A stretch of 63,808 nt of DNA, filler included, from Hausera hauseri (taxonomy: Eukaryota): assembly GCA_046269625.1 (NCBI GenBank). It is 10 parts of 10 records of this genome, joined end to end, with 100 filler letters (N's around TTAATTAATTAA, not from the genome) between each part and the next. Parts side by side here need not be neighbours in the genome. Positions count along the whole stretch, not along the records: positions 1 to 7,353 come from JBJURY010019786.1; positions 7,454 to 15,346 come from JBJURY010889845.1; 8 more parts are not named here. The stretch is one strand, 5' to 3'. The notes beneath the pieces are model-generated. The model saw only the letters and a list, made by a program, of their open reading frames with translations, was not told the DNA's origin and searched no databases. Position 1 is the stretch's first letter. Each line of letters starts with the position of its first letter. Below are positions 2,505-59,330 of this stretch, piece by piece. The position numbers and the translations under genes were made by a program.

Positions 2505-2589
2505 ACATGCAAACGTCTTCAATCTAATAACCGTACCTACGCTGTTTTCACATTAAAAGCCTCCTTAACATCCAAACCCAATTAACCAA

Positions 2590-5500
2590 TTAACTTCCTC
2601 ATTGACTTTGGGGCTGCTGTTTCTTTGTTACCATCATTGATCAAAACACCATTAATCTCACCATCTAACACTAAATTATACACAGCTGACGGTCAAGCCT
2701 TACGCATTTTCAGCACGTCCAAGGTTTCATTTACTTTACTAACATTCTCCGACATTTTCAATTGGATATTCATCGTTGCCGACACACAATCTCCAATACT
2801 TGGATCTAATTTCTTATCTTTCTGCAACCTCCTTGTAGATTGCAAACAACGTCAGATAATAAAAAGCTGTTCAACAAAATCTGCCTCTAAAAATAACCAA
2901 CAAATAATGCAACCTATCTCCCCTATAAAATCGATATTAAAAGAACCATCAGCCGACGCAAATAAGAACGTCATTAATACCAATATAAATAACCCAACGT
3001 TTTTTTTGCAGTCCGGTAATAGAGGAACAAAAAGCGTTGACAAAGACGATTTAAGCAACTCAATTTCTATCGTTTCACACACTAAGTCCAATCAAACCAC
3101 TGTCGTAGAAACAACAGCCTTTACTATGCTTAGACAAGAAATGCAACAATATCTAACCAAAGCTTGTTTGCATACAGTTAAAAGAGACCCAGTATTTCGA
3201 CCAGCTAACAAGACGTTTTATCATATCACCACAGAGAACCTTAGGCCCGTTAGGCAGAAACTCCATCCACTTTCGCCACGCCGTCAACAGGCAGTACAAA
3301 CGGAATTCTCTGCACTCTCGCAAGCTGACATTACAAAACGCTCTAAATTACCATGGGCATTACCACTCCATGTCGTCCCAAAGAAAGATGGCACATTCTG
3401 TCCCTGCGGTGACTATCGACAACTTAATAATGTCACAACCATGGATGCTTATCCCCTACCGTTGATTAAGGATATATTGCATTCTTTACACAAGACTATG
3501 ATTTATTCAACCATAGATCTCGAAAAAGCCTACCACCAAATACCGGTAGCACCAGAAGACATCCCAAAACCGGCCATTATAACACCTTTTGGTCTCTTCG
3601 AATACGCATTAATGCCGTTCCATTTAAAAAACGCAGCACAAGCTTTCCAACGGCACATAGATTCAATTCTTTCAGGCTTGCCATTTGCATATCCATACAT
3701 TGATGACATGCTAGTCGCATAGGCATCGCCCAAACAACACGAAGAACATCTCAGGCTAGTTTTTTAACGTTTACACTACTACAACTTGCAAGTGAACTTT
3801 GCTAAGTGTTCCTTCTTTTAGAAAAAGGTCAATTTCCTCGGCAACGTCATCATACCTGACGGTCACAGTCCACAGCCTGATAGAATCCATCAACTACAAA
3901 ACATCGAGCTACCAAAAACCACTACTGACATGAGTAGTTTACGTGGAACTTTAAATTTTGTTCATAAATACGTCCCACACTGTAGCCAGTTAACTGCTCC
4001 TTTCAATCAACTAGGAGCAAGGCCAAAAAAAGCTCATAAATTGTACACCAGAAATTGTTAAACAGTTCGATAAACTCAGCGACAAGCTCAAAACAGTCGA
4101 AATTTTAGCTTACACAAAACCTGACGATGACCTCATTTTAACAACCGACGCATCAACTACAGCAGTAAGAGGTGTTCTTCATCAAATATCTCAAGGTATA
4201 GACGAGCCGTTTAAATTCTTTTCACGCAAGCTGCAGCCACAAGAACGCCGTTATTCTACCTTCGATGGAAACTTCTGGCCATTGTTTTAGCTCTGAAATA
4301 TTTTTCACATTTACTGATTGCTCGTTTCTTCACTATTGAAACGGAGCATAAACCTCTCGTTCACGTAATAAACATGGAACAACCATCACTCCGACAAAAA
4401 CGTCATATTTCATATCTGTCAACATTTAACTTCAAAATTTGCCATATTTCCGGCACAGAAAATTTAATGGCCGATTTCTTATCACGGTCAGGTGGTTCAA
4501 TTACTGTCACGCCTATATTCTCCAAGGAAAATTAATCCAAAATTCCCCCTCCGCAGAAATTCTGAAACAATACAAATCCATGCATCATCGATGGAATAGC
4601 TATGGATACTTCGACATCTAAACAACATTTGCCAATTTTGGCACTTCCTCTCCAACAAACTGCATTTTAACATGTTCGTTCTTTACATCACCCAGGTTTC
4701 AGGGCTACATTCCGCCTTCTCAAACGCCACGTAACATGGCCATCAATGAGGTATGATGTACAGAGCTGGGTTAGGCAATGCGTAGCTTGCCAAAAGTTCA
4801 AAATAACTAAATATCTTAAACCACCATTATTCCATTTCTCATGTACATCCCGCTTTAAGTCAGTTCACATAGATATATTTGGCCCATTACCTTCCAATAA
4901 CGGCCACCAATTGATTTTAACAATGATGACCCGCGCGTCTCGTTGGCCGGAAGCCATCCCTATGTGCTCCATCAATACAGACTCCATTTCCGACGCATTC
5001 ATAAGGATTTGGATTAGCCGGTTCGGTTTATCTCACCCAATTTGAATCGAACCTATTCAAATCTCTAGTTAATCGACTGGGCATAAAACAAATACACACA
5101 ACTTCATACCATCCCCAGTCGAACGGTTTATTGGAACACTTTCATCGCACTCTCAATATCTCGTTAAAAATCCTGGTTGAAACTCATAAGAATTGGACAA
5201 CCATCCTCCCTTTTGTTTTACTCGGGTGGTGCGACACGCCGTCTACTACCAACGGTTGCGCAGCCGCTGAAGCACTCTTTGGTACCACAATTCGTGAACT
5301 CTTCGAGTTCACAGATTTGGATAACACACCGACTGACGAAACCATTAGGTCTGCACAAAATCACTTCGTCCAATTAAGCCAAGATTTTTCTGCAAAATAG
5401 TACATGATGACAAATCATGCTTACCTGACTCGCTATGTAATGCAAAGTTCGTGTGGATAAAAAATTCTTTACCTTCCGGATTCCAACCAAACTCTATAGG

Positions 5501-5990
5501 ATCATATAAAGTCCTCAGTCTAACTTCACACACGGTTACAATACTCAAAAACGACAAAGAACAAAATGTGCATATATTTAACATAAAACCTACATTGTTC
5601 CTTAATGACACACCGGATCCAACAACTAACTTTGCACATACATTTCTTGACTCCTTCAATACTTCTTCTATTATACCTCCACGACAAACTGCAATTTTAA
5701 AACCCGCATCAAAGCAAAAAACTACGCTAAACGACATACAGACTAGTTTTCAGGCTGCTGGCACGTCAAATCAAAATTTAACTTCCCACATTCCAACTCA
5801 GCAAACAATTAAGCAACATAGCAAAAACGCAAGACAGTCACCTTCAGCAAATTCAACAAAGAACAAAATACCAACAAAATTCAACGTCTTGTCCATACAA
5901 AGACTCAACAGTTCACTTACATCTGTCGGCCTTATTTCTTTACTCGTTACATTAACACAGTGTCACCTTCGTAACGGGAGGGGCAATGTG
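2590..5990 (+). pseudogene. pol: Disrupted pol (PR-RT-RNase H-IN) of A1
   Basis: ORFs 2625-3722 (YIDD), 4746-5045, 5131-5400 and 5451-6029, interrupted by stops and frameshifts. Confidence 0.9.
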
Positions 5991-6332
5991 GTGCCGCTGG
6001 AGAGGAGAATGGAAGAAATAAAACAGTAAGAATAACATTAAAGGAAGAAAATTAAGATATGAGGATTATAACAATGAATGAAACAGACGATGTATTGACA
6101 TTATGAAAAAAGATTAAAGAACTAGAACCGTTTTATAAGAAAAAAACAGACGGATTAAGCTTCTATGGCAGAACACTATATAGCTACTTCAACATGCTAC
6201 GAGTGGGATGTAGTTATGAAAACTATAATCCAATTATGATAGTAGAAATACACTCCGATGCAAGAGCAAAAGAAACGATAGAGAATATAATAAGGGAACT
6301 GAAACCTCAAGAGGTTGGGGAACAACCATTAG

Positions 6333-6911
6333 GTGATACACAGGATGTTTCAGTACAAACAGAAGCCCGAAGGAGAGGGAGACCAAAAAGGAACAAAAAT
6401 AAGCGTCATTCGAAACATAAAGGATCGAAACGAAGAAATTGTACGGCGACTGCTATTAGCAGGAACGGATATAATGCCAGAATCTATAGATATAGATTCG
6501 TTATTAAGAACGTTACTAGCCAAATTACATACGTCATTTGCATCGTTTGATATGCAAGTGGTAATTACTGACGAATTGTTTCAGACGTTACGTAACGATA
6601 TGCTAAAAATTAGCAGGCAGTTTTATGAAAATATTGGTGAGGAAAAAATTACTGAACTGCATGAGCAAGATATATTAGAAAATGTGTTCGCGACAGAAAT
6701 CACGCGAGAAAAAGTACGAACAGCTATAGCTTATCTGTTATATAAAGTGATTGTGATCAATTACCAGACCCAAAATTTAGAAGAAATTGAGCGAAATATT
6801 AAAGCAGCGGTTAAAGTTTTAAAAGACTCGTTTGAAAATTGGGTCCAGTGTAGAGGCGGGTGGTTCGCAAGTCTTACGAAAAATGTAAGAGTAAAAGGGT
6901 ATGGAGGATAA
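6333..6911 (+). CDS. Bcl-2 family-like helical domain carried by the retroelement
   Basis: BH2-like FENWVQCRGGW; BH1-like VFATEITREKV (compare BOK FSAGITWGKV) at the expected ~50-aa spacing; BH3-like QTLRNDMLKISRQF; BH4-like IDSLLRTLLAKL. Preceded by the AT-hook-like RRGRPKR in the overlapping frame. Confidence 0.72.
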   Translation: MIHRMFQYKQKPEGEGDQKGTKISVIRNIKDRNEEIVRRLLLAGTDIMPESIDIDSLLRTLLAKLHTSFASFDMQVVITDELFQTLRNDMLKISRQFYENIGEEKITELHEQDILENVFATEITREKVRTAIAYLLYKVIVINYQTQNLEEIERNIKAAVKVLKDSFENWVQCRGGWFASLTKNVRVKGYGG

Positions 6912-6965
6912 ACAGGGATATCAACCGTAGCACAATCAAACCTACACACGTCAAGACAAGGCATA

Positions 6966-8800
6966 ATGGGAATGACGATGATGGGGATCTTCCAGATAAT
7001 CTTAATAACATCCTTGCTGATGCCGAAGGCAATGGGAATAGTAGCATACGATTGCTCAAAACCTAAGGAAGGACAGACGTATTCCTTAGTTGATCTAGAA
7101 AAATGTCCTGAAACTGATTCAGAACAACTAACGACAACCAGCGGTCATAGATATTGGATTTATCAGGAGTCTGAATTTATAAAATCCAAAATCAGTGAAT
7201 GTTATGTGAAGAAATTTTTCTTTCTGTTCAATTGTGCGTATTATTCCCGAAACTCTGCAATAATTGAACCAACAACATCATTTCAGCCGATAATAATATC
7301 GCGCGCCGAATGTCAAGATGCTTTTAAAATCGGAGTTATAACGATACAGATATNNNNNNNNNNNNNNNNNNNNNNNNNNNNNNNNNNNNNNNNNNNNTTA
7401 ATTAATTAANNNNNNNNNNNNNNNNNNNNNNNNNNNNNNNNNNNNNNNNNNNNTGATTATCGATCCTGGGGGGGGGGTGGCCCAGTGCGCTCCTTTCCCC
7501 CTACTAACGTGATAGTTGTAGATTTCTATAAAACAGCGATGCGATTACAAAAGTAATGTTTCACAGTGTTACTAAACTGTATGTCGAGAATAAAAATGCC
7601 ACTTACAAGATGAAATGTATGCTTTTAGAAGTTCTGTTATAATATGGGAACCTCCTTCTGGAAGAAACTGTAATTTTATCAAAATTAAAGAACTGAAATT
7701 CAATGAAGCCACCGGGAAGCGCGAAGACCTGGCCGAGTATTCTACACCAATGATGCTGATTTCTAATACCTATGGTTTGAAATTTATTAAAAAGGAAATA
7801 ATTTCACTTTACGCGGTTGTGCTGTTTGCAACTAGTTATGAAGCATTTTTCGTCGCAGAAATGGAAATACGTGCACGGACTTATCAACTTGAAATACAGG
7901 ATATTAGTATTGAAGATTACTTGAAAAATCGAGACGACAATTTTACTGCAAAAGACAAGTTGGAATAGCCGAACTATACATAAAATGATAACAAACAATT
8001 GTATGCTAGACATGGAAATTATGAGAACAAAACTAGCTCTCATTTATGCTAATCCTGAGTTTGTATCACCAACAATTCCTATGATAGGAGGAATTTTCGA
8101 GTGAGTCACCGGTGAGGTTTTATTGACCTACGAATGTGAAAAAAGGATGTATCGATTAATGTCGAAGAAAAACGGTGTATACAAGAACTCCCGGTTATAT
8201 ACCAAAGCATTCCCCGGTTAGCCATTCCACTTACTACAGTTTTCTTAGATAACGCGACTTAGCCAACAATCCTTAAAGATTGTAAGGCAAGCTTAGGGGA
8301 ACCCATGTTTAGACGTAGCGAAACGGATTGGGTAAGTTTGCCAAACGGAGGTATTACTGACGCTCCAATTAAGTTAACGGGAACTAATCTCGTGAAACGA
8401 ATCAGGGATGATAAATTCCAGGACACCTCATTAAAAGGAATTTATATACCAAAGGAAATCAAAGCTTTTAAACAATTTCTCTCTTTTCGCAACAACAAAC
8501 GCAGGCACTGAATCGAAAGGTCGCCTCAGTACTAGACGATACTCGATATCAAGCTAAATGGGAATCCTTGCTCGGAGTAAACCATTACCAACCAGTAACC
8601 ACGGAAATATTGAACAAAATTTAGGAAGATTTTTAATCTTTGGACAAGCCGCATCTGGATTTCTAGCGATGTATTTTATGACACAACTAATTAAAACGGT
8701 CATCCAAGCAGTAATAAACGGGTATGAAATATTTATATTGACGAGGTTCCCGTGTAAAATATTGACCGCGATCATCACACCGTTTGGAAATCAGACGTAG
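6966..8800 (+). pseudogene. env: Envelope glycoprotein, chuvirus/Anakin-type (gB-related), disrupted
   Basis: Signal peptide then AYDC..YSLVDLEKC..YQ..EC..C..C-x5-G, matching the chuvirus-G N-terminal cysteine pattern. Continues after the gap (IIWEPP, CMLDMEIMRTKLAL, CIQELPVIY) to the hydrophobic C-terminus GQAASGFLAMYF..CKILTAIITPFG. Confidence 0.8.
7354..7453. other. Artificial contig linker (N44-TTAATTAATTAA-N44); also at 15347, 21221, 26029, 30743, 36237, 43233, 55492 and 59737
   Basis: Identical 100-bp spacers containing stops in all six frames. Confidence 0.98.
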
Positions 8801-9118
8801 AACGTCATTTCGGCTACCACAATCGCAAAAGGAAAGGGAGACCTATGCTTTTGTACAAGCAGAAGTTCTCTAAACCTAAACCACGATGGAATAATTCGGA
8901 TGATGACAAGCCTAAGGAAGGAGAAGACCCTTTTAAAACAGATGGACATAAGACATACTCCATAGTTAAGGCACCATTGCTCATGTTACCCCCTCCGCTC
9001 CAATCTATGAACACTGCGACAAACGATCGATGAGTGCATATCAGACAGAAATTTATGAAAGAACAATAGGGTTGGAAGACCCTTATGAAGGGACAAACGG
9101 TATGGAATTTTACGGAAA

Positions 9119-12100
9119 ATGTGCTACCGACAGCATATGGACTATCCTAGAATTTTGCACTCTCCACGAAAACCTGGAAATATAGACACTAGACCACCTG
9201 TCTGGGGAAATCAAAGATTACGGACCTTCCAGAATGTAGCACCGCTTACTAACAACCGAGAGCCATTAATTAATACTCATGAAATGGAAGAGTCGAACAT
9301 CGAAAACAATGAATTATATCCAAATGAGGAACTAAGACAACTAACAGAAAACATAGTATCCTCCCCAGAAATCAGGATAAAGGGTCACAAGATATCGGCA
9401 ACGAAGCGCCCAAAAGTTGCATCAAATTGTTTTGGAACAGTAATAGAAGGGAGACCCTTCTCCATAATTACTATTGAAGATTGGGAAGTTTATGCCCTAA
9501 TGGACATAGATTCAGAGATGTCATACATCAAAAATGACTCAATTCCTCAAATGTTAAGGGGACAGTTATATATACCATCTACGAGGGACCCCGGAAGCAC
9601 AGGAGCTTTCGGCAAAATGTCGAAACCGATGTTCAAATGGAACCCAGAAGTTCAAATAGTTGGACTGTTTTTCCGTCACGCATTTGCAGTTATAAAACAA
9701 TTAAATGACCATGTACTTTTAGGCTACGACTTACTGAAGTGACTACCAAATGTAGCAATCGACTTCCAAACAGGAGGACTGAGAGAGATTAGGCCAAAAA
9801 GGGATAAAACCGCTAAAGATAGAAAATTTGGGAAAGTATAGATCCCAGTAGAGGAAAATATTCCACCATGAACAGGGATAATAATTTACTCTCAAGTTTA
9901 CCAAGATTATGAACAACCAGTATACTTTGAACCAAAGGAAACATTAGATCCGAATATAATATTCAGTAATATATTGACAAGAGTACACTCGGGTCGTGTG
10001 CCAATCAGAATAGTGAATAATGCACCGACTTCAGTAAAGCTTCATGCTTACACTACCTTAGGGAATACCTATGGAGTGTCGTCCATAACCGTTGAAGAAA
10101 AACCTTATAAATATGCCGAATTTCCGCCACATGTTGAAACTAAGCATTCACCTAAATCTTACTGCTGATTTTCTAAATTATTGTGTTGCTATAAATCAAT
10201 TATTGCTAAAGACGACGAAGATATCTGTAGAGCAAAAGCTTTAAAATTGACTATCCCGATTAGGAAAAAGTCCGAGTCAAATGAGGAGATAGATCTTGAA
10301 GATCAAAAGATGCCGAAATGGTGTCCTCTGCCACATTCATTAAGACCCGAGGTAACAAAAGAAGTCGAACGGATGCTTAAAGCCAATATAATTCTGCCTA
10401 GCTATAAATCGTGGTACTCACCAATTCTTATGGCTAAAAAGAAAGGCACTACAAAACATCGATTTTTATTGATTACAGGGCACTGAATATCCTTATGATG
10501 AATGATTCTTTTCCGTTACCATCAGTAAAAGATGCTTTGGGTAGGCTTTAAGGAGCAAAATGGTTTACTACTCTGGACTTACAATCTGGATATTGGTAAG
10601 TGGAAATTGAGGGTGAAGACTTCTATAAAACCACGTTTAAAACGCACGACGGTGTCCATGAATTTAATGTCATGCTGTTTGGTATTACCACCGGACCAGC
10701 TATTTTTACGAGAGTGATGAATAAAATGTTAATGGGTCAAGACCACTCTTTTGCATACTTAGATGATGTAATGATAGCGTTGAAGACAGAAGAGGAACAT
10801 TTAAAAGGTAATGAGCACACGTTGATGAAATTAGAACAATTAGGATTAAAGTTGAACCCAAAGAAATGTAAATGGGCTCGGAATGCAGTATCCTACCTTG
10901 GACACAAAGTTGGAGAAGGAGGATAGAAATCAGATAAATCATTACTGAATATGATATCTGATTGCATGGAGCCACAAAATCAGAAAGAGTTAAGACACTG
11001 TCTAGGTTTATGTGGATATTACGCCACCTATGTGCCGGTAATTCGAAAATAAATGCACCTTTATATCGTCTACTTAAGAATTAAATGGAAATGGACAGAT
11101 GTCGAACAAAAATCTTTCGACGAAATGAAGAAAATTTTAACAAGAGAACCAGTCTTAAGATACCCATATTTCAATTTACCTTTCATAATTAAGACAGATG
11201 TCAGTAAAGAAGGTATTGGATACAAATTAGCTCAGAAACGAGAGAATGAAGAGTTGGAACAGCCAATCGCTTATGGGGGACGATTCCTAAAAAAAGGCCG
11301 ACAAAAATTATTCCGTTACTGAATTAGAAACCTTAGCCGTTAAAGTAGCACACTGATGTTTTAACGTTTACGTATACGGACAAAAAATCATAATTGTTAC
11401 TGATCATAAAGCCGTCACAACCCTGAAAGTGCTGGAAAACGATCCCACCTGCAGGCGTAACAGATATATTGAAAAAATTTCAAGATATAATATTGAATTT
11501 TAGTATAAGCCTGGCAACAAGCACCTTGACGCTAATGCACTATCAAGACTACAAACTAAGACAAGTGCAATTACGATAATAAAGAAAGCTCAGCTAGAAG
11601 AATTAATAGACCATCGACACGTTCTGACAATGGACAAAGCAATAAAAATCTCAACCGAACAGAAGAGCGATAAAGTTATCCAGCAGATTATAGAATTTGC
11701 TAGAAATGATACAGTACCAAAAGGACGACAGCTTAGGAAACATCTGCACAGGCATGGACACAATTATTGTGTTTTGAACGAGAAGGGTCAGGAGGTTATT
11801 TTGTATTATAAACAAAAAGAAAGAAAATTAACAGTCATCCCAAAGGATTTGCGCATCGACGTTTTAATGACGGAACACGATTCATACTTAGCAGGACAAG
11901 TAAGAAGACATTAGAAAGAATATTGAATAAATACTTTTGGCCCAGTATCTATATTGACATAAAGAATTGGGTAAGTGCTTGCGAAGTATGTGCAACTAAA
12001 CAGAAAAAGACGAAGAACTACACGGCAGAGCTAAAAACAATTGCCGTACCAGACAGACCTATGCAAGTCATGTCGAAGGACATTGCAGGACCATTACCTA

Positions 12101-12840
12101 CGGCCCGAAAAAACAATAAATATATATTGACTTGTATTGATCGACTGACTCACTTTGTCGAATTGGTGGCGATGGGCGACCAGAGGGCAGAAACTTTGGC
12201 CGAAGCTGTAGTAAGAAGAACAATTTGTCGATATTGGCTCCCAAATTAAATACTGACAGATCGAGGAAGAAATTTTACTAGCGAACGGTTTGAGAAAATT
12301 GCTAAAATATTCGAGATAGAGAAGTTAACTACGACCGCATACCATCCTAAGTGTAATAGAATGGTTGAACGAATGAATGCAACAGTCTTCATTCTTAAAC
12401 CATTCTTCATGATGTATGGACGTGCGGCTGTGTTACCCACAGATTTAGGGATGATACCATACACGCTCAATACCGAAGATTTAGAACAGAATTTTGCAGA
12501 AGTGCTCCAGACGCTATTACAAAAATGTCGGGAAATTGCTAAAGAATTGTCTCAAGAATATAAGGAGCAGTTTAAAAGACAATATGATAAGAAAGCAAAA
12601 TGACACGACTTAGAACAAGGGAATTGGGTTTATGTACATTACTAAGTAGCTAAGAAAGGTACGACGTTAAAACTGACTAATACAGGAAGAAGACCGTACG
12701 AAGTTACTAAAGCTACGCCAACTACGGCATATGTCAACAAGAATGGAATAGAAGAGGTCGTATCAGTGCAGAGAGTCGTTCAAACAGATATACGATTAAA
12801 CAAACATTACAATTTACGACCACGCGAGACAAATTTCATC
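9119..12840 (+). pseudogene. pol: Disrupted pol of B1: PR (~9440-9740), dUTPase-like segment (~9830-10090), RT (~10300-10930), RNase H (~11160-11550), IN (~11870-12800)
   Basis: ORFs 9119-9742, 9974-10168, 10181-10486, 10600-10926, 11053-11322, 11630-11914, 11923-12249 and 12361-12603, with canonical motifs in gypsy order. Confidence 0.92.
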
Positions 12841-12849
12841 AATAATTGC

Positions 12850-14230
12850 TAGGCCGATCTCATATGTTCAGATAGTTTTAGCACTGTCGTTAATCGCTTC
12901 GTATATCCGAAAAGCACAAATTCAATGGTGTAACGATAAAACTGAGCTAGGAGATGTATATATAATTTGAAAGAGTGGATTGAAGTTGAAACCCATTATA
13001 ACGGAAGTTAAACCAACGACCGAAGAGATCCAAAAACGCGAAGACACTCTTCTGTTACAATCAATGAAGTCTAACTATTTTTCACCTGATTCTGTGTGTG
13101 TTAAATTTAAAAATTGGTGACCGCATCATAACTTTGGAAAATTTAAAGTTGTCCTATGCGACATAACAAAAGAGAAGCGAAAAACTGTGATTTTGAATCC
13201 GGAGATTATACACAGTGCTGCGACGTAGATTATGGACACATCTACATTCTTACTTATTGGTTATACTTACCAGACTTATCGGAAGTCTATATCGAAGTAA
13301 ACCAACAACTTAAGTTAGTTATCCCCAATTGGGCCAGAAGATTCAAGGTGACACTCAACGAAATGCTACAATCCACTGATCCAAATATAAGGCTATTAGA
13401 TGAAAATATTAAAGGAATCTCAGTAGATGAGGAAAAACAATGCATCCAAGTAGACGCTCAAACAGGATTAACTCTTAGTTAAGAAATTAGTATTGTTTTC
13501 GAAGCAGTAAACGGGAAAATCCCGAAAATAGAGTACTGCTCCGTTCATGCCGGCACGCAACATCCATGTTGTAAGCTGCCAGTAAACCGAGAATTCAAAA
13601 TAAAATTTGACTCATGTCAAGTACGACCAAATAAACTGAGCAAACACTTGCGAACTTTTTTACCACATGTCTTAATATGGAAGATTCCAATAAAGACGAC
13701 AAACAAGAAACCGACCACTCGAGTTAGTGACGTTAACAAAACCGTTACATCGAACAGCATGTCTAAAAAAGAATTAGAAAGTATACCTATCAAATATTCG
13801 ACACATCGATTTAAAATTGTTCTTTGTGGAAGAAAAACTAAATTACGATATACATATAAGCTGCCGAACAACGTATAATAATCAAATTGTAATATTACTT
13901 AAAAACACTTACCAGACAGAATGAGATTCGTTAAAACAACAATCGGATTATATAATACAAATTATGTAGAAGATAAAAAAAACCAAACAACCACATTGCG
14001 TATCCTAGACGGAATTCTTGTGGAATCGCATATATACGAAAAGGTAGACGATGAAATCACAACTCAAGTCACCAAACAAGCACAAATGGGATTAACCACT
14101 TTATCGACGGTATAAATTATCGTATTATCAAAGTTTGCTCTCATTATATTAATTGCGATGTTTTGATTAGTTACCAAAAATTGTCATTCTACGCTCCTTA
14201 AACTACAAAATGGGAAGTAAGTGAATTGGA
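12850..14230 (+). pseudogene. Second type-I membrane glycoprotein-like ORF after the integrase (B1)
   Basis: Signal-like RPISYVQIVLALSLIASY, Cys block CDFESGDYTQCCDVDYG, Thr-rich stalk and hydrophobic TM near 14110-14175. Homologous to 45230-46565 on -. Confidence 0.65.
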
Positions 14231-14255
14231 ACCCCAAGAATACCTCCATGATAAA

Positions 14256-14359
14256 ATAACCTGACAATTACAGATCGGGTAATTCTATCCTAAAACAAAG
14301 TGGTTTTGGTTTAAAACCATAATTTCTTTTAGGATTAGCCCTTACTTTTTATTTTTCAG
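14256..14359 (+). promoter_or_regulatory. Conserved hairpin plus splice-acceptor-like site (B1)
   Basis: ATAACCTGACAATTACAGATCGGGT is identical to the reverse complement of B2 ~45191-45215; followed by TTAGGATTAGCC, a pyrimidine tract and CAG. Confidence 0.6.
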
Positions 14360-14389
14360 ATTGGTAAGTACCAATAGGACGACCAGTAA

Positions 14390-15113
14390 TGACAACGAGA
14401 AACATAGTATCGACGATTTCTTAAAGAGATGTATCACTCTGCTTATTCTCAAATCGAAATCCATCGACCGCCAAATTAATAACGAGGTATATTAAAAAAC
14501 CCATGTGGAGTAAAATCGGACAAGTGAGATCCCTAATAATATGAAAGGGACAACGGAAGAAGATCGAGTCATATATCTTTATGCTACGAGGGACGATAGA
14601 GATGTCAGATCATATTCGCTGAACCAACTAGCCAGAATTGAACCAGTATATCATCATAATAGATATATTCACCTTGCAGACGGTGAGCTCTATTACCGGT
14701 TAAGGAATCAACCATGGAATGAAAGTAAAGGAAGACAATACAAATTTAGTACGTTCCATATGTGTAGTGGAGATTTCTATTTCAATAACTGTGAACTAGA
14801 ATTGCGAATAGCAGCATTTCCGGTAAAAATGATGATAGAAATCACCTATGAAGATGCGCCCTTTATCAAATTGCCCTCGGTGAAGTTCGAAAGCCAGCCA
14901 TCCGAAAGAGATCAAGATGATCACTTAGGCTCGTATCGACCTGTTCAAGATGGAAGAAATGTACGGGTTATTGCAGTAACCTACGGATAGAAGGACGATG
15001 GCAAATATATTTCTATCGATGTCTCCGTCAGAGACATAAATGGGATAGAAGTATATTCTAAACTAATTAGTCCTATTGAGAGGGTCAGGGAAACCTATGC
15101 TGAAGTTACCTGA
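14390..15113 (+). pseudogene. 3' accessory ORF of B1, unknown function
   Basis: ORF 14541-14990 plus flanking frames; N-terminal SIDDFLKR matches DIDDFLQH in the B2 3' ORF. Confidence 0.5.
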
Positions 15114-15118
15114 GTAGT

Positions 15119-15346
15119 GGGAAGGGAGCGCATGAAGCCAACCCCCCCCGGAAGGAAAATTTCTCTGATTGACCAATCAGAGAGCAGAAAGGGGAAGAAA
15201 AAAATGAGATTGACCAATCAGATAGGAGGAAGTGTGTGTGTGTTGTTGAAGAAAATTAACCAATAAGAACGCAGGATTCCCAGCTCTAAATTTTATATAG
15301 GAAAATGTGGCTCAGTCGGGGTTTCACTATTCCCACCCCTTTTGGC
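15119..15346 (+). promoter_or_regulatory. PPT and start of the 3' LTR of B1 (three CCAAT boxes and a TATA)
   Basis: GGGAAGGGAG at 15119-15128, TG at 15133, TTGACCAATCAG twice, AACCAATAAG, then TTTATATAG near 15292. Confidence 0.65.
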
Positions 15347-40559: not shown

Positions 40560-42380
40560 TTCATATGTACTACCATCGTACTACTATTGGTGTCAGAAAA
40601 ATTACAGAGCAGATTCTGTTGTACCAAATGCATTGATTCGCTGGATTCCCGGATACAGAATTATACTGGTGAGTTCGGTTGTTGTCTTTGGGGCATCCCG
40701 CATTTGTTTTTATACTACAATTTAACTAATATGTTAAAATTCCATCTGTTTATTCTATTCCATGCTACAATCAGTTGTCAAAAAAACTCTTGCAAACGAA
40801 AATTTTATTATCCGTGTGCTGCAGATACATGATGTTTTCAAGATTTTGAACGGTTGCAGCTTTGGTATTCATGTCATGCAATTGAAGCGGATTTTTCAAA
40901 TGAACATGTATATGCTCTTTATGTGAGCGCAAAGGAGACATTAACGATCTTATTTATTGCATAAGTTGTGGTCAACACTACGACAGTAACTGTCTTGAAC
41001 CACCACTCATACTCATCCCTACTGTGCATGCTGGTTGGCAGTGTGCCGAATGTAAAACTTGCCTTGTATGCAGCGGAAGTAAAGATAAGAAAAAATGCTT
41101 GTATGTGATATATGCCACAAAAGTTTCCACAGATATTGTTTACAACCTCCAATGGCTGAAATTCCTAAAAATGGCTGGAAATGTAGCTCATGTCGTGTCT
41201 GTAAAGATTGTGGTTTTTTGCTAAAACCAAACGTTTCCGCAGTTACAAATGCTGTCTCAAATTTCCGTTGGCATAATAATTACACGTTATGTGATCGTTG
41301 TGCTCAAACTCGACAAAAAGGTCATTCAATTTGTTCAGTATGTGACCGCACCTGGCGTTGCTGCATCATTCCCAAAGGCAATAGTACTTGCAAATAGCCT
41401 AGCTGTCGTTGTTGTAAATGTAAAATATGGCGCATATAGAATGCGATCCATCTACACTTGTTATTGCGTCACCAGTGTATTCCCTTGGATCATCCAGTAG
41501 CAACGCTGGTTTAGATGAGACAGGCTCACTGGCCGCAGTAGCCGGTACAAGTAACGGCAATTATCAGTGTCCCATATGCAGAACTCGTGGTTCGAAATCC
41601 CCAAGCGATAATGCATCGACACGCACTAGTCCAATGCCTGGAAGTTACTGTGGTGATGACTTAGCCGATGATCTTGAGGAACAGAATGACGAAGAAAACG
41701 TATCACTTAGCGAGTTTGATCCTCTACCTTCTCGCATGATTGGCAACGATGGCCAGTGTTCATTGTCGTTGAATCACCGAGGGAGTGTGGAACCAGATTA
41801 TGGCAGCAATAGTCTGGATGACAGCAGTACGGTGTCCGGTTCTACCACTCCACAAGCATATAGCCAAAGTAACAGTAGTGGAAAATTTCAAGCTCCAAAT
41901 AGTATTGGACGTGGTAGAGGTAATAAAGGAAAGTCAGTTGAAGGTGGTGTGCAGACAAACAAAAAACGTCCACAGGTACTAAATATGGGCAAACCAAGCA
42001 AGTGTCAAAATATCAGATCCGAGTGAGAGTACCCGGTCTGTATTCCTTGTTTTATCTCAGTGCCGGCGGCAAATCATCAGCAAAACGCCGTAGAGCTCTA
42101 CATAGCAAACGTTCTCGGCGCGTAAAGACCAAAAAACTCAACATGAAAAAGATTATGGATTGCCATTCTTCAAAGTATAAATTTGTGCGATGGATTGACG
42201 ACCATCGATACTGGACTGTCAAGGTGGAATATAAAAACTCTGAAGAAAAAGACAAGCATCCCAGAACCGTTGCTATTTGTCGCGCCAACGATTCTTTTGT
42301 GTTGGATCAAGATATATGTGTTTCGTGCGGATCGTTCGGTGTCGACGCACGGTTATTTTGTTGTGTTCAGTGTGTTCATC
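40560..42380 (+). pseudogene. KMT2C: KMT2C/KMT2D (MLL3/4; LPT/Trr-related) N-terminal PHD-finger region, intron-free and disrupted
   Basis: ATISCQKNSCKRKFYYPCAA..FQDF (extended PHD), CISCGQHY, AGWQCAECKTCLVC, MLVCDICHKSFHRYCLQPPMAEIPKNGWKC, WHNNYTLCDRC, HIECD, FVLDQDICVSCGSFG. Confidence 0.88.
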
Positions 42381-42849
42381 AGATCGTTTAAACAGACACT
42401 AAGGAAATGCCGGGTACTTAAAACTGTAAACTTCTTAGAATAGTTGCACTGAACAAAATTATTTCCTGGAAGTGTGGGACTTATTCCTGAATAAATAAAG
42501 GGAAAACCTTTGGCCCAGTTTTTTTTTAATCAAACGAAGTGGCAGAGCAAAATTTGTTGTTGAACAAAATACGACTCGTTTCTCTGGGAAAATCCTATTT
42601 CATATAAAACTCATGTTAGTGGTAATATTTGTAGAGCTGAATACACCTCATTTTTAACAGAGGAGGGGGTGTGATGTAATATATATACCAGATGTTCAAA
42701 GGATACTTATTAAAACAAGTGTTTGTTGGCAGTACCGGCTGAAAGTGTATTAATTAATTGTTGTGTTGAGTGTTTGTTAATTTTGGATAAATTTCGCATG
42801 AATTTCAGTTCATATGCGGCGTTATTTACATGACGAAATGTGATTCTGT

Positions 42850-43232: not shown

Positions 43233-43387
43233 NNNNNNNNNNNNNNNNNNNNNNNNNNNNNNNNNNNNNNNNNNNNTTAATTAATTAANNNNNNNNNNNN
43301 NNNNNNNNNNNNNNNNNNNNNNNNNNNNNNNNTATAAACTTTGTTGCGCGTTTCACATAGATTTTAATATGAATTTTAAAAACTTTA

Positions 43388-43903
43388 TGTGGTACTGGTC
43401 CCTTGTAAGGAGCGACGGAAACTATTAAGAATTTAAGTACAAAACTTTATTGACAATAAAAGAAAATATACCAATAAAATAATAGCTGTCAATCAACACA
43501 ATCAAATCGATTAGTAGGTCTGATTACGAGTCCTTTCGTCTGCTAGCAATTTCAAAATTACAAGAGTCTAATCACAGCTACAAATGTACACTGTACCATA
43601 GCATTTATATAGCTGCTTGTAGACAGGATTTGGTGGGAGAGATTTTCTTAAATTTTCTCTGGGTTTTTCTCAGTTTTACATTGGTTAATTCTAATTAACT
43701 GCAAGTAGTTAGTTATTTTCTTGATATTTGGTGTGCATTATTTTAGTAAATTTCTGTATTTTCCAGAGCAAGTCAATGAATTAATTGATTTCAACTTGGA
43801 ATTTGTTATTAATACACTTTCAATTTTCACTTTCAGTTTCGCTTTCGTTTCTATTTATTTACAATTTTATACATGGTAGTTCACAATCATTGTTTTTATA
43901 ACA
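43388..43903 (-). repeat. 3' LTR of B2 (~516 bp)
   Basis: On -, PPT AAGGAAGGAGAAA then TGTTAT; CCAAT near 43680, CTATATAAA near 43605, AATAAA at 43446-43451; ends ..ACCACA. Confidence 0.7.
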
Positions 43904-44043
43904 TTTCTCCTTCCTTAACGGCCCCCCATAAACGATTCATTCGTCCGCGTAAGCCCGCTTCCGAATCCGACTCATCTCGCGGAGATCGCGGGTCGAAGTG
44001 GTATGATGTAGTGGGTTTCTGGGGAAATATCTCAACTATCTTT

Positions 44044-45105
44044 TTACTCTCCATTAGAGAAATATCTTAGTCTGATAGCTTGCGCTCTACATACTGGGCA
44101 GGTCGTTTTCCCGCTTTTCAGGGTCCACGTTTCTAAGTAGTACCGACAGTATTTGTGGGTACAATCCTTATTGTCCAACACCACAAATCCTTGGTACAAA
44201 TTTGCATCGCAAACGGGACATTCTTTTTCGCCTCCGTCTATATCTGCACGGTTTTCGTCCACATCAATATGTTCAAATACGAGTCCCTTTATATCTTGGT
44301 ATAAATATCCATATAGTCGTTTCTGTTTATGATCTATAGAGCTTTTCTTGGTGTCGTCTGACACGGTAACCAATGTCCATTCAACGATTTCTTGTTTATC
44401 CAAGTCGGGTATTCCGGTTTTCTTGTATTGCCTCTTGAGTTGCACTCGAACTTGGGTATCCACTGAGATAGTTAGCCGATTAGTTCCGTTTTTCGACTGG
44501 AATATCGAGGCTAGGTATTTGCTAATCGTTATGTCTTCTCGGGCGCATGCGTTTCCGCTCACAATTCTTCTAGGAACGGTAGAGACAGAATATAGCTTCT
44601 TTGATCTTACCCCTTGCTATAATATTCAGCCATGACGAGTAATCGGGTATATTCTTTAACCGGACCGAATTCGGTTCCTATGATTGGGGCTGGTTCTTCC
44701 AAGTTTTTTCGAAGTACATTCACCTCTGTTTTGGGTGGTCCACATTTGAGGGTTTTCATTCCTGGTTCACTGGATCTCTCAGCTTCCTGTCTTAGTTTTT
44801 CCGTGGGTTTTGTTGCTTCTTCATTGATGCGTATAAGGCTGCTAGTTGACGGTTTTATCTCCAACCTGGAATTATATCTCTCGAAAGGTATGCTCGTGCA
44901 TCCTTTGGACTTCGCATCGCGTATAACCGGATTAGTCGATTGTCCTCTAGACTACATTTCAATCCATTCGGTATTCTGCTTTCTTGATCGATTTCTGTTT
45001 TTTTCGATTTTTGTTTTGGTTGTCAGTTTGAGAACTGTTACATGTTGTAGGAAGTCATCGATATCGTAACTGAGACTGTGCTGAGTTCTTCATCTTTTCG
45101 GCCAT
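44044..45105 (-). pseudogene. 3' accessory ORF of B2 ending in a RING finger
   Basis: CPVC..CTHKYCRYY..W..CPVCR (C3HC4 with one Cys replaced by Tyr) in ORF 44044-44562; upstream frames 44607-44864. Confidence 0.78.
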
Positions 45106-45112
45106 ACTTACT

Positions 45113-45215
45113 CTGCTAAAATAAAAATAAAGGTCAATCCTAAGACAGATCATCGTTTTAAAACAAAAAAATTTCTCTGATTATAGGATAACCCGATCTG
45201 TAATTGTCAGGTTAT
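45113..45215 (-). promoter_or_regulatory. Conserved hairpin plus splice-acceptor-like site (B2)
   Basis: Reverse complement reads ATAACCTGACAATTACAGATCGGGTTAT...TTAGGATTGACCTTTATTTTTATTTTAGCAG, followed by AGTAAGTATG. Confidence 0.6.
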
Positions 45216-45229
45216 GATATCATAAAGCC

Positions 45230-46565
45230 GGTCTTGGTACCCCTTTACCCGTTTACCTCTGTTGATTCTGACGTCCTTTATTATAGTTTTTGGAAATCAA
45301 GAAAATCGTCGCTGTTAAAATGACAAGAACGAAAATTGACAAACTAATTATAGCTATTATCGATAAGTTATTCGGTTCAATAAAATTTTCCGTAGTTATT
45401 GCATTTTGGGTACTAATACGTGAACTTCGTCGTTATGGTTTGTACTGTAAGAGTTTCATGTCGCTTACCATCTGCGGTTATTTGAATTATGTAATCATTT
45501 CGTGATTGTAAGGATTTGCATTCGATTTCCTGTTTATTTCTCTGCAAGATTACAATTTGGTTGGTGTGTAAGGTGCGACATTCGATTTTAATTTCATAAT
45601 CCACCGTTTCTTCAACATAAAATACAATTCTATTATGTCGTACTAAAAATTTGACAGGTATATTCTCCAATTCTTTCTCGGGTATTTTACTCGAAGTATA
45701 AGTATAAGTAGTTGGAGTTGTACTTGGAATGGTAGACGGTTTTCTCGTAGTTGTTGGAAGGGAAATCTTCCATATTCCGACTTTTGGGCGATATCCTCTC
45801 AAGTACTCGGTTCGTTTGGGTAGGTATTGTACAAATCAAATTCCAATTGGTATTCATGATCTAAGGGTATTCTGCAGCACGGATTTTGCTGTTCTCGCGC
45901 AATATAGCAATATTTCACAGGGGGGTCGATTTATGTATCGGTATGAATCGGATGGAAATTTGTCTGTCTCCCGGTAATTCTATTTTGGTTGTGTGTTTCG
46001 GATGCATTGGTTTTGAAGTTTTTAGAAATACCTATAATGTTGAAATCTAAGAGTTTTTAAATGGGTTGGTGTTTTGGACTATCTCGTCTGCCTTGTTTTG
46101 GCTCGCGCCGTTCCGTTTAGGCATTCTAATTTCGGATTTGGCAATTATATAGGCTTGGGCTCCAGGTAGATTTTAATAGAACATCTGAAATTTGTACTTA
46201 TGTTTGTCCAAAATCTATATCGCAACATTTCTGATAAGCTCCATATGGAAAATCACATGTCTTCATTGCAGAACTCATTTGATCTACAAATATTTGAAAT
46301 TTTACGTGGTTCTTCACAGATTCACTTGCCTTAAACCAGGCACAAGGTTTTATCCAATTCATATCGTAGACTCTAAGCGACTGTAAATTCTGTATATCTT
46401 TTCGTCTTGCTGCATGTTGTTCCTTTTTTGTCGGAATATATGACATAACTCCGTGGATATCTTCTACTAAATCCATTGTCCATTGGGTCTTTACCTTTGA
46501 TATATATGAAGCGATTAGCGATAGTGCAAGAATTATTTGTGCATATGATATCGGTCTGGTTACTA
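45230..46565 (-). pseudogene. Second type-I membrane glycoprotein-like ORF (B2) with an FN3-like domain
   Basis: RPISYAQIILALSLIASY; CDFPYGAYQKCCDIDFG; Thr-rich PTTTRKPSTIPSTTPTT; LQSRNDYIIQITADG..TVQT; TM IIAIISLSIFVLVILTATIFLI. Confidence 0.68.
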
Positions 46566-46599
46566 TCGATGACGTTTTCTTTTCATTCTTGGTTTGACT

Positions 46600-49500
46600 T
46601 GGATTTTCTTTATTTAAGCGCAGGTTATTGTTTATTTGGCCTTATTTCCGATTTGACTACTTTTTGTATTGATACGATCTCTTTTTGCCATTTTTATTAA
46701 TATAAACTGTAGTTGGTGTGGTTCTGATAACTTCGTAAGGTCTTCTGCCAGTTCGAGTGAGTTTCAGAGATGTGCCTTTCTTTGCGACTGGGTAATGTAC
46801 ATAAACCCTATTTCCATGCTCTAGATCATGTGGTTTAGCCTTCTTATCGTATTGTCTGTTAAATTGTTCTTTATATTTTTTAAACAATTCTTTGTCTATT
46901 TCTCAACACCTTTGTAGCTTTGTTTGTAATACTTCAACAAAATTTTGCTCTAGATCCTCCGTTTCCATTGTATATGGTATCATTCCTAAGTCCATGGGTA
47001 ATACAGCCTCTGCCATACATCATAAAAATGGAGTAAATTCTGTTGCAGGATACGGTATAGTGTTTATGGCGAATTGCGTGCCCTCTAAAAATTCATCCCA
47101 ATCCTTCTGGTCTTTCGCAACTACTGTTCGTAATATTCGTATAACTCTGCGTTTATTCGTTCAACCATTCCGTTACATTGCGGGTGGTAAGCTGTTGTGG
47201 TTAATCGTTCAATTTCAAATATTTTGGTAATTTTTTTGAATAGTTCGCTCGTAAAGTTTCTTCCTTGGTCTGTTAGAATTTGTTCGGGAGGCCCGTATCT
47301 ACAGATAATTCTCCTCACTACAGCTTCAGTCAGAGTCTCAACTTTTTGGTCCGCTAATGACATAAGTTCGACGAAATGAGTTAATCGGTCTATACATGTC
47401 AGAATGTATTTATTATTCTTATGAGTTGTAGGTAACGGTCCTACAATATCCATTGACACCATTTCCATTGGTCGGTCCGGCACGTTTATTGGTTTACGTT
47501 CGGGAATGTAGTTTTTCACTTTCCTCTGATTAGTTGCGAATACTTTGCAAGCACTTGCACAATTCTTCACATGGATGTATACGCTCGGCCAGTAATATTT
47601 ATTTAATACTCTTTCTAATATCGTTTTCCCTGTATCCGGCTAAGTACGAATCATGTTCGGCCATTAGTACTCCTGTGCGTAATCTTTTTGGTATGACTAC
47701 CAACTTCCGTCCTTTTTGCTCATAATACAGTACATTTTCATTACTTGTGTCTCCCGTTACGCAGTATTTATGACCATGTCTTTGTAAATGTTTCCGCAAT
47801 TGGTGGACGTTTGCTGTTATTTCATTTTCGAGAAACTCAATGATTTTTTGTATACCTTTGTCCTTCTTTTATTCAACAAAATTTTAATGGCTTTATCCAA
47901 TGTTAGAGCTCGTTGTCTGTCTACTAGTTGATCGAGCTGAGCTTTTCTTATTACAGTTATTGCGTTCGTTTTAGTTTTAAGCCTTGATAGCGCATCGGCA
48001 TCGGCATGTTTGCTTCCGGGCTTGTATTGAAATTCAATGTTATACCGTGAGATCTCTTTGATCCATCGCTTGAGCCTGTACTTTGGTTATTTGCTCTACC
48101 TTTCAAAGTTGTAACTGCTTTGTGATCCGTAACAATTATAATCTTCTGTCCGTAGACCTATAAGTTAAAGTTTCGTAGAACTTCTTTTACAGATAACGTT
48201 TCTTATTCCTTAACCAACTAATTCTTTTCAGCATTCTTTAGTGACCGTCCTTCATATGCGATTGGATGTTCTAGTTCTTCATCCTCTCGTTTTTGAGCTA
48301 ACTCATATCCAATGTCTTCTTTACTGGCATACGTTTTAACTATAAACGGAAGGTTAAAATCAGAATATGTGAAAAAGGGTTCTATAGTTAAAATTTTCTT
48401 CATTTTATCGAAAGCTTTTTGCCCGACGTCCGCCCATTTCCACTTAGTTCCTTTTTTAGGTAAGGCATACAAATGTGCATTTATTTTTGATTTATCTGGT
48501 ACATAAGTGGCGTAATAACCACGAAAACCTAACCAATGTCTCAACTCTTTTTGGTTCTGGGGTTCCATACAATTCGATATCTTATTTAATAATAATTTAC
48601 CTGGTTTCGGTCCTCCATCTCCAACTATATGCCCAAGATAAGATACATCGTTTTGGGCCCATTTACATTATTCGAGATTCAATTTCAATCCACCTTGCTC
48701 CACCCTCATGAGCGTGTCCTCAATATCTTTTAAATGTTCTTCTTCTGTCTTCAATGTAATCATTACGTTATCCAGATACGCGAACGCGTGTTTCAGTCCC
48801 ATTAGCATCTTGTTCATCATTCGAGTAAAAACGTCGGGTCCAATAGTTATCCCGAATGGCATTATAATAAATTCGTATACACCGTCGTGTGTTTTAAACG
48901 CAGTTTTGTAGCTGTCTTCTTATTCTATTTCTACTTGCCAATATCCGGATTGCAGATCGAGAGTGGTGAACCATTTAGCTCCGGAAAGTCTATCCAGGGC
49001 TTCTTTTACTGATGAAAATAGGAAAGAATCTTTCATCATAAATGTACTTAATGATCGATAATCGAAACTAAATTGGTGCTTTGTAGTACCTTTCTTCTTA
49101 ACCATGAGTAGAGGTGAGTACCAAGATCCATAGCTTGGTATAATGGTGTCGGCCTTTAACATACGTTCGACTTCTTTTGTTATCTCTAGCCTCAAAGAGT
49201 GCGTAGGGGATATCAGTTCGAAATTTTTTTTTCCTCTAAGTCTATTTTATCATTGGAGCCAGGCTTTTTCTTAAGTGGAATTGTTAGTCGCAAGGCTTTG
49301 ACTCTGCCAATGGCTTCTTCGTCTCTCGCGATGACTGAGCTGTAATGACAGAGTAATTCATAAAATCAACAGCATGCTTTCGGCAAAAATTTAGTTTCAA
49401 CGTGAGGTGGAAATTCGACACATTTGTAAGGTTTTTCTTCAACAGTTATTAACGATACTGTACACGTATGACCCAAAGTGGTATTGACATACAGTTTGAT

Positions 49501-50440
49501 CGGCGTTGGTGCGTCATTAGCTACTCTGATCATCACGTGGCCTGTCAATACTCTTGTTAATACGTTGCGAAGTACGATACTTGGGTTTAGCGATTCCTTT
49601 GGTTAAAAATAAACTGATTGGTCGTCATCTTGACGTATCTGAGCATATATTAACACCTCTGGTCTAGGCAGAATGTTCTTGTCCACTAGAATCGATACTT
49701 CTCCAAATTGTCTATCTTTGATGGTTTTAATTCCTTTTATCGGACCGAGCTCTATTAATTTCCCTGAATGAAAATCTATTGCTACATTAGGTAATTGCCT
49801 TAACAGATCGTATCTTAAAACTACATCGTATGTTAGCTATTCCATTACTGACAATTCGTGATAAAAATATTGTCTCATTATGCGAATTTCTGGCTTCCAT
49901 CGGAATTTGCTTTCCAATGATTGTCCAAAAGCTTCAATACTTCCTGGATCTGTTGTTGGACGTGGGTATAATTGTTTTAGTAGGAACTGCGGTATTGAGT
50001 CATGTTTTATCAGTGATATCTTGGATCCTGTGTCTATCAATGCGTAAACGTCCCTATCTTCTCACTGAATTTTCGCGAAGAATCTACCTTCGATTACTGT
50101 TCCATAGTAATTTGGCTCTATCTTTTAATGTTGAATCGTTGATACCTTATAACCGTTAATTCTAACTTTGGTGGTTGCAACTGGTTGGTCGATTAACTGT
50201 CTTAACTCTCCATTTTGATACAGTTTATTATTCATGCAATTGGCATTTTCCGTTTCCTGACTTACAACTGGCTGCTGTATTTCTTGGTTCCTGAAACTCT
50301 GTATCTCATGGTCTCTTGAGAATGTTGATCGTATTTCGTTTGGTCTGGGTATTCTGGGTGAATAAATTATTCCATGGTCGTCGACCGCTGAACGACGATA
50401 TGGGACAGATATTCTTTTCGTTTCGCGCACCTTAAGCAAT
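46600..50440 (-). pseudogene. pol: Disrupted pol of B2 (PR, dUTPase-like, RT, RNase H, IN)
   Basis: IDTGSKISLI, WFTTLDLQSGYWQV, AYLDNV, HPIAYEGRSL, HDSYLAG, SMDIVGPLP..ILTDQGRNF..NGMVERIN. Confidence 0.92.
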
Positions 50441-50810
50441 ATACCATAGTATTTTATTCCTTTATAGGTATCTTCCGTGATTGTAGATTGTTTCTCACAG
50501 TCTTCATATATAGGTTCAGTTTACGGTAATATTGGTAAAGGTGGTTTTATAACGGAATAGTTTTTGTGTCTATTTATCCTTGAGACGGCGTGTCCTCTCT
50601 TAGGCTTGTCATCATCAGAATTATCTCTTTGTGCCCTGTCATTTCTGAATTTTGGCTTGTAACTAAATACGTCTCTCCTTTTACATTTCCGGTCATGATA
50701 GCCAACATGTCGTTCAACATCCATTTTTATCTATTTTCTTCGTAAGCCTTTAAGAATTTACCAAAGGATGTGATAATAGCTATTAAAATTTTACATGAGA
50801 AGCCATTAAA

Positions 50811-55045: not shown

Positions 55046-55273
55046 TTATATCTCGATAATTATACCCGTGTCCTTACGGATACCATAAATTGCTTCTAGA
55101 TTTTCATTCCTAATTACATTAGTTTTGTTAGGCTCAACAAACGAAACACTTCGTGGGTTTGGACAGGACCTTGCTACGTGCCCTTCTTGTCCACATGTAT
55201 AACAAATTAGGTTGCCATTTCTACCGACTCTTTGTTGACCGTCTTCATTTACTGGAGATTTTGATCTACTCAT
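55046..55273 (-). CDS. gag: Gag nucleocapsid region with a CCHC zinc knuckle
   Basis: CYTCGQEGHVARSC. Confidence 0.85.
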   Translation of the reverse strand: MSRSKSPVNEDGQQRVGRNGNLICYTCGQEGHVARSCPNPRSVSFVEPNKTNVIRNENLEAIYGIRKDTGIIIEI

Positions 55274-59320: not shown

Positions 59321-59330
59321 AAGCCTTACC

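Follow-up and report, generated by a model that had tools for sequence, protein, structure and literature searches.

Decayed gypsy elements with a chuvirus-type env upstream of pol in Hausera hauseri and a predicted second membrane protein downstream of integrase

Does the genome of Hausera hauseri harbour retrovirus-like gypsy elements with an envelope gene (env) between gag and pol, and do such elements encode a single polyprotein that crosses a membrane repeatedly? The question arises from a stretch of 63,808 nucleotides of assembly GCA_046269625.1 (the window), in which the original prediction recognized two divergent copies of such an element, B1 and B2. In the window, 10 records are strung together with one and the same artificial linker of 100 bases (N44-TTAATTAATTAA-N44, identical at nine of nine junctions). 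B1 comprises the end of record 1 (5999-7353) and the whole of record 2 (7454-15346), while B2 corresponds to record 8 (43333-55491) and is read on the minus strand. Quite probably, these loci are decayed Ty3/gypsy fragments with a chuvirus-type env upstream of pol, akin to planarian Burro and GAG-ENV-POL elements, the active forms of which are predicted to produce one polyprotein with four crossings of the endoplasmic reticulum (ER) membrane. Domain identities and order were obtained directly from the window, and uninterrupted gag-knuckle/env/pol frames from natural relatives; the mechanism we infer.

Domain order and state of the copies

Record 2 alone encodes on the plus strand: (i) the C-terminal half of env with its transmembrane (TM) segment, (ii) an aspartic protease (PR) region with the linker to the reverse transcriptase (RT; 9455-10120; profile of 11 relatives, E 7.6e-23; no Pfam match; catalytic motif degenerate), (iii) RT and RNase H (RH) interrupted by stops (10471-11450; RVT_1, E 1.7e-27; RT_RNaseH_2, E 8e-18), and (iv) an integrase (IN) with H2C2 zinc finger, core and GPY-type C-terminus (11860-12760; Pfam scan). 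B2 pol (46680-50076, minus strand) likewise comprises PR, RT, RNase H and IN, is interrupted by stops as well as frameshifts, and shares 70 % nucleotide identity with record 2 over 2974 nt; both copies thus display the Ty3/gypsy pol order PR-RT-RH-IN. The predicted order gag-env-PR-RT-RNase H-IN is real as judged from the positions in record 2 and B2, except that the B2 env is inverted. Similarly, the env C-terminal half of record 2 does lead into PR collinearly and on one strand, but frameshifts and stops in this coding run leave no single open frame. Differences between record 2 and B2 reside mostly on third codon positions (RT 34/24/86, IN 32/21/84, env 15/8/26, and 13/12/33 for the fibronectin type III (FN3) module described below), which indicates that all four were under protein-level constraint.

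Upstream of env, B2 contains a gag CCHC zinc knuckle (55157-55210, minus strand; zf-CCHC, E 2.7e-7) behind low-complexity tandem repeats, the capsid lying beyond the record end, and a ubiquitin-like domain (52900-53205, minus strand; 11.6 bits, 0 of 497 shuffles as high). Its counterpart in record 1 is weak and contains stops (6020-6280, plus strand; 4.4 bits, 7 of 494 shuffles as high; no Pfam match). A first, shorter ubiquitin-like profile found nothing in the whole window, and these scores derive from a longer profile applied to the two candidate pieces. The knuckle was predicted to precede env in record 8, and this order is kept, but env lies on the opposite strand. The record-1 fragment further contains, all on the plus strand, an RGRP motif (6368-6391, from translation), which we take to be AT-hook-like, a Bcl-2-like helical domain (6501-6878; PF00452, E 4e-4, below cut-off; profile of six relatives, E 4.6e-10), and the internal signal segment and N-terminal ectodomain of env (6912-7352; PF24664, E 6.2e-13; env profile columns 6-127), cut by the record end. 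The Bcl-2-like domain was found in record 1 only; the candidate in B2 is unsupported, as 38 of 499 shuffles score as high.

All coding parts of both copies are broken by stops and frameshifts, and the records of 7.9 and 12.2 kb end inside the elements. A whole-window search with a gag profile detected no capsid belonging to these elements, and the window contains neither an LTR (long terminal repeat) pair for them nor a tRNA gene. The copies are dead, decayed relics with stops, frameshifts, an inversion and a deletion.

The env gene and its inversion in B2

The Pfam family PF24664 (Monjiviricetes_fusion) matched three env pieces above cut-off (6912-7352, E 6e-13; 50852-51409, E 2e-10; 51964-52470, E 2e-13) and also the TM region of record 2 (8342-8791, E 1e-7). 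In record 2, the frameshifted C-terminal half of env (7521-8790, plus strand; PF24664 and env profile) includes a TM segment at about 8624-8734 and shares 67 % nucleotide identity with B2 (51509-52396). The relative P0014, folded with 34 homologues (pLDDT 78.5, pTM 0.50), best matched glycoprotein B (gB) of herpes simplex virus (HSV) 1 with an E-value of 3.6e-14. Judged from PF24664 in the window and the modelled fold of this relative, env is a chuvirus-type, class III (HSV/gB) fusion protein; the fold check called for by the original prediction agrees in both respects, the fold being that of the relative and not of the window protein.

The B2 env (50852-52430, plus strand) comprises signal, ectodomain and the start of the TM segment, and is inverted relative to the rest of the element. 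Compared with record 2, it forms a direct repeat (67 % over 893 nt), whereas pol forms an inverted one (70 % over 2974 nt). At the left breakpoint, record 2 positions 8641-8676 correspond to B2 52393-52428 on the plus strand, and 8747-8790 to 50801-50758 on the minus strand. From this alignment, a block of about 1.6 kb in B2 is flipped, extending from ahead of the env signal to within the TM segment. The open frame described ahead of the B2 env signal is part of this inverted piece. The flipped env has lost about 260 nt of the ectodomain (profile columns 469-566), and the position of the block still yields the order gag, env, pol.

Natural relatives

A HMMER search with the B2 env piece against 1.84 billion representatives yielded 69 matches, the best being a knuckle-env-pol protein of 2627 amino acids (49 % identity); further long proteins came from looking up clusters and from a second search. 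PF24664 was present in all proteins subjected to a Pfam scan, i.e., 13 of the 69 matches, 5 proteins (three cluster members and two repeats) and 10 new matches. CCHC, env and RT motif share one frame in 9 of 16 long relatives. The gag capsid domain is also present in P0089 and P0081, ankyrin in P0074, P0081 and P0082, and P0082 has Pfam matches to ubiquitin and Rad60-SLD. One relative is filed under a bacterial metagenome-assembled genome, which is taken as contamination. Word-based homologue searches were less productive: none of 131 candidates obtained with the record-1 env piece belonged to the family, and the B2 RT region retrieved only four ordinary gypsy polyproteins and did not reach the family.

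In an env tree of 72 rows, B2 belongs to a group of 20 rows, mostly polyprotein envs (Shimodaira-Hasegawa-like approximate likelihood ratio test, SH-aLRT, 97), and stand-alone glycoproteins of 600-750 amino acids stand apart from it (SH-aLRT 100). The RT tree, which contains no named Burro sequence, joins record 2 with B2, but their place among the relatives is left open. The RT of the window copies is 37-43 % identical to that of env-bearing relatives and 34-37 % to that of the best-aligned env-less gypsy, P0001.

As a separate observation, aspartic-protease-like repeats number two to four or more in the env-RT interval of P0010, P0012, P0074 and P0083-P0088, with an additional one behind the integrase.

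Second membrane protein downstream of integrase

A signal and a TM segment after IN were predicted from the two copies jointly, and in each copy both are indeed found as hydrophobic segments, the first following the integrase and the TM segment lying about 400 codons further on. In record 2, the broken gene (12845-14175, plus strand) comprises a signal-like segment (about 12851-12905), an FN3-like module (13802-14002) and a TM segment (about 14110-14170). In B2 (45295-46560, minus strand), a signal-like segment (about 46490-46550) is followed by a Thr-rich stretch, an FN3 module (45425-45652) and a TM segment (45295-45366). A profile built from 12 FN3 modules of the relatives, chosen by motif without window sequence, had its sole significant window match at B2 45652-45425 (E 9e-5), and in the candidate pieces of either copy its score was reached by 0 of 500 shuffles. 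The model of the B2 domain (pLDDT 91, seven strands) has FN3 domains as best Foldseek matches (E 4.9e-4, TM-score up to 0.76); FN3 also leads in the Atlas for the B2 piece at 0.89, which is weak taken alone. Two further FN3-like modules upstream, noted by eye, were not supported (shuffles as high: for record 2, 26 of 486 and 9 of 495; for B2, 270 of 491 and 192 of 499).

Both post-IN hydrophobic segments recur in the pol frame of 13 of 15 relatives (hydropathy at least 2.0). Seven of these 13 end in S/T-x-V, presumably a class I PDZ-binding pattern; the tail of B2, taken in the frame of its TM segment, is short and does not have this ending. In the literature searched, a post-IN protein with signal, FN3 and TM was not found, though figures or supplements of Grohme 2018 and Sacco 2022 may describe it.

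Downstream of this gene, record 2 contains an accessory ORF (open reading frame; 14514-14987, plus strand; no Pfam match) with a short homologue in B2 (44995-44888), for which the Atlas leads to beta-trefoil families, all below 0.9. The downstream accessory ORF of B2 (44047-44616, minus strand) ends in a RING-like finger (44086-44223; zf-RING_2, E 1.9e-5, just under cut-off). Between the second membrane protein and these ORFs, a block of 25 nt (14260-14284, plus strand) is identical in B2 (near 45190-45215, minus strand) within a non-coding stretch of 124 nt that is 78 % alike between the copies. It could form a short hairpin, adjoins a pyrimidine-rich AG and GT(A)AGT splice-like motifs, and has high depth in X1, a matching sequencing run. 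It may possibly represent a signal, for packaging or for splicing, that serves the accessory ORFs downstream.

Predicted topology and processing

The order signal, TM, signal, TM would place Gag with its cargo in the cytosol, env in the lumen, Pol in the cytosol, the FN3 protein in the lumen and the tail again in the cytosol; the post-IN module thereby supports the predicted four-crossing topology, which assigns each domain to the compartment that its fold needs, in line with what is established for such domains. Gag together with the ubiquitin-like and, in some members, Bcl-2-like cargo would remain cytosolic, and the internal signal would bring the class III fusion ectodomain to the lumen of the ER, its N-terminus to be released there by signal peptidase. 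Past the env TM segment, the chain would continue in the cytosol with PR, RT, RNase H and IN, to be cut apart by the element's own protease, and a second internal signal would export the FN3-containing ectodomain, anchored by the last TM segment. Capsid, enzymes and both surface proteins would thus come together at a single membrane from which particles could bud, and the FN3 protein would probably serve in attachment or in targeting to the membrane. In B2, env was inverted and partly deleted later.

It is proposed tentatively, at somewhat less than even confidence, that this lineage forms enveloped particles from one polyprotein, which passes the ER membrane four times and gives rise to two surface proteins: a class III fusogen encoded ahead of pol and, behind the integrase, an FN3 adhesion-receptor-like protein. 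If true, a reverse-transcribing element would possess a two-glycoprotein entry system (attachment plus fusion) organized in flavivirus style. If, moreover, both surface proteins are made and particle-borne, a separate module for attachment and a co-translational mode of membrane assembly would have arisen in invertebrate retroelements, a prospect testable in planarians.

A further hydrophobic pair was observed in P0074 (residues 2088-2145, the second segment by eye) between the ankyrin repeats and the last protease; it would keep the in/out parity of the polyprotein.

Counter-evidence and alternative explanations

Several findings weigh against the main reading. Neither copy in the window retains an open frame that extends over env and pol. 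The biological part of the original proposal, an enveloped Metaviridae lineage with env between gag and pol, holds for intact relatives, which encode it as one predicted membrane-crossing polyprotein (CCHC, env and RT in one frame in 9 of 16). In record 1, a TAA precedes the env signal, with in-frame ATGs next, and in B2 env is antisense to gag and pol. With gB, the TM-score is low (0.32-0.35), and the protein compared is P0014, not that of the window. B2 forms a long branch among the envs, and in the RT tree record 2 and B2 sit on a long stem (1.32) at a fork without resolution that includes an env-less arachnid gypsy row (P0004 was left out, having no RT anchor). Finally, the four-crossing topology is derived from hydropathy only, P0085 has no post-IN module and P0027 ends ahead of it.

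With the same gene order, env might instead be expressed from an ORF of its own, either from the next ATGs after a real stop behind the Bcl-2-like domain or from a spliced RNA, in which case no single polyprotein would exist. As originally described, the Bcl-2-like ORF and the env signal of record 1 share a frame with a single TAA between them (6909-6911), and in-frame Met codons follow. This would accord with the three ORFs in GAG-ENV-POL order reported in PMC13524379, the main text of which never uses the term polyprotein, and with the RT identity of only about 37-43 % between the window and intact env-bearing relatives. Conversely, the Bcl-2-like domain continues into env without a stop in P0014, P0081, P0006 and P0082, in addition to the nine relatives with knuckle, env and RT in one frame, and one stop ahead of env is expected from decay, since six of the seven coding stretches counted contain 3-10 stops, the exception being one short piece. 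An env ORF of its own is regarded as unlikely, and one polyprotein remains the preferred reading.

The apparent order could also be an artefact, arising on assembly or windowing of a repeat family with many copies. The join between records 1 and 2 is the artificial linker (7354-7453), without any sign that they adjoin, and the contigs of X1, the one matching run (no RNA run being among those listed), are numerous and short (13,279 and 11,038 on the two records) and mostly less than 95 % alike, a setting prone to chimeras. Nevertheless, env precedes pol within record 2 alone, and the same order recurs in proteins from ENA, JGI and NCBI assemblies. In addition, a 496-nt X1 contig spans the right inversion junction of B2 (52171-52666) with zero differences, although X1 may be the window's own source and is then not independent; among the listed contigs, which are short, none spans the left junction. 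An artefact would account for no more than the reading of B1 as a single copy and is otherwise very unlikely. Most improbable, and largely refuted, is a separate insertion of env (an endogenised chuvirus-like gene or a nested element) into an env-less gypsy, which would explain the antisense env of B2 and might accord with the position of the record-1 piece behind the LTR head of an unrelated gypsy, but is contradicted by the left B2 breakpoint, which cuts the env TM region as inversion of a resident gene would, by the like divergence of env and RT between record 2 and B2 (68 % and 70 % amino acid identity), and by the grouping of env with polyprotein envs.

Relation to known elements

Two papers describe this architecture. 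Planarian Burro elements encode in frame gag-CCHC, Ub/SUMO-like, BCL2, mononegavirus-like env, PR, RT, RH and IN (PMC6431247), and GAG-ENV-POL elements with HSV/gB-type env occur in Nematoda, Bryozoa and Platyhelminthes, six of them from S. mediterranea (PMC13524379). As both designs are published, the architecture is that of an already described family, an outcome that the original prediction itself named as refuting it, and the novelty originally attributed to env between gag and pol does not hold; a polyprotein with env in this place was published as early as 2019. The layout is real, and the window adds decayed members only. What remains of interest is the family-wide second membrane protein and the processing it implies.

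From their domain composition, the elements are likely kin of Burro and GAG-ENV-POL elements. With Burro/GYPSM1 (PMC6431247) they share a mononegavirus-type env between gag and PR, the domain order, the Ub/SUMO-like domain upstream of BCL2/env (clear in B2, weak in record 1) and RING-type accessory cargo. Gag, env and pol in one frame are seen in intact relatives, the window copies being broken, and a BCL2-like domain just ahead of env is seen in record 1; none was detected in B2, and record 2 starts past that point. Burro/GYPSM1 elements are giant (more than 30 kb), with LTRs, MATH, BIR and ankyrin cargo, and a dUTPase-like domain between PR and RT; the window copies are partial and decayed. 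Pfam gave no match to MATH, BIR or ankyrin in the window pieces scanned and none to dUTPase in the PR-RT region, which is homologous to that of the relatives. A second membrane protein after IN and the membrane topology are not described in the accessible text of the review PMC6431247, nor were they found in the literature searched, in which Grohme 2018, Jurka 2007 and Sacco 2022 are represented only through papers citing them.

The errantiviruses of PMC13524379 resemble the window elements in their Ty3/gypsy pol, gB-type env and GAG-ENV-POL order; the env rows of Smed_errantivirus_1-6 show the same motif order by eye, unscored, and this likeness alone points to a likely flatworm host. They are intact and several are multi-copy, whereas the window copies are decayed and lack the intact ORFs by which elements were included in that catalogue. 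Its main text makes no mention of polyprotein, fibronectin, accessory, Bcl or Burro. The non-canonical endogenous retroviruses of nematodes (Sacco et al. 2022, as cited in PMC13524379) are metaviruses with an RNA-virus-derived glycoprotein ahead of pol; they have the flipped env/pol order in common with the window elements and differ in host phylum. The Anakin BEL/Pao elements (Dezordi 2020, as cited in PMC13524379) carry a chuvirus glycoprotein and thereby agree in the broad glycoprotein class.

Membership of the latter, or of other env-bearing BEL/Pao elements, is ruled out by the gypsy-type pol domains (Integrase_H2C2, RT_RNaseH; no match to the BEL/Pao peptidase) and by the upstream env. 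In Anakin elements, env reportedly lies downstream of pol.

The record-1 fragment

B1 was regarded as a single copy, which is not borne out: it spans the artificial linker, and its two env halves are unlike in their identity to B2 (30 % or, for nucleotides, 45.5 % for the record-1 half; 52 % and 68 % for two env stretches of record 2). As a yardstick, in 12 pairs of relatives with 65-75 % identity in the conserved stretch the N-terminal halves are 42-65 % identical. Outside relatives resemble the record-1 half (up to 45 % identity) more closely than B2 does. Moreover, this Burro-like fragment starts directly behind a polypurine tract and short LTR head (5976-5999, plus strand, from sequence) of an unrelated gypsy element, whose pol is located at about 2586-5600 in record 1. 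Record 10 also contains the LTR head GTGGTGCCGC behind a purine tract (at 63700), followed there by different sequence. In record 2, roughly the first 67 nt have no match to env and are covered very deeply in X1, and none of the listed, short X1 contigs extends across the start of the record. In favour of one copy, the two env halves are collinear and non-overlapping (columns 6-127, then about 175 onward), and the N-terminal half of B2 is itself atypical. Because the halves differ in identity to B2 and the record-1 half sits behind an unrelated LTR head, they probably represent different elements, with adjacency unlikely, and the piece in record 1 probably derives from a different subfamily; a tree of env N-terminal halves (P0019 left out) left its placement unsettled. 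The position of the fragment at the LTR head fits capture of foreign sequence at an LTR, or a deletion. Linker and local inversion both shaped the first reading, which calls for caution.

Other features of the window

The purine tract and LTR head GTGGTGCCGC are common to two other gypsy elements (5976-6020 and 63700-63725). Downstream of a gypsy pol in record 7, an ORF (41424-42388, plus strand) encodes a Ser-rich part followed by a Cys-rich end, with no supporting Pfam match; the Cys-rich end presumably resembles the PHD finger of MLL3/4-type host genes. Record 9 contains long nested inverted repeats (56580-59736; arms of up to 331 nt, 77-93 % alike) together with tandem repeats, an arrangement that appears like a foldback element.

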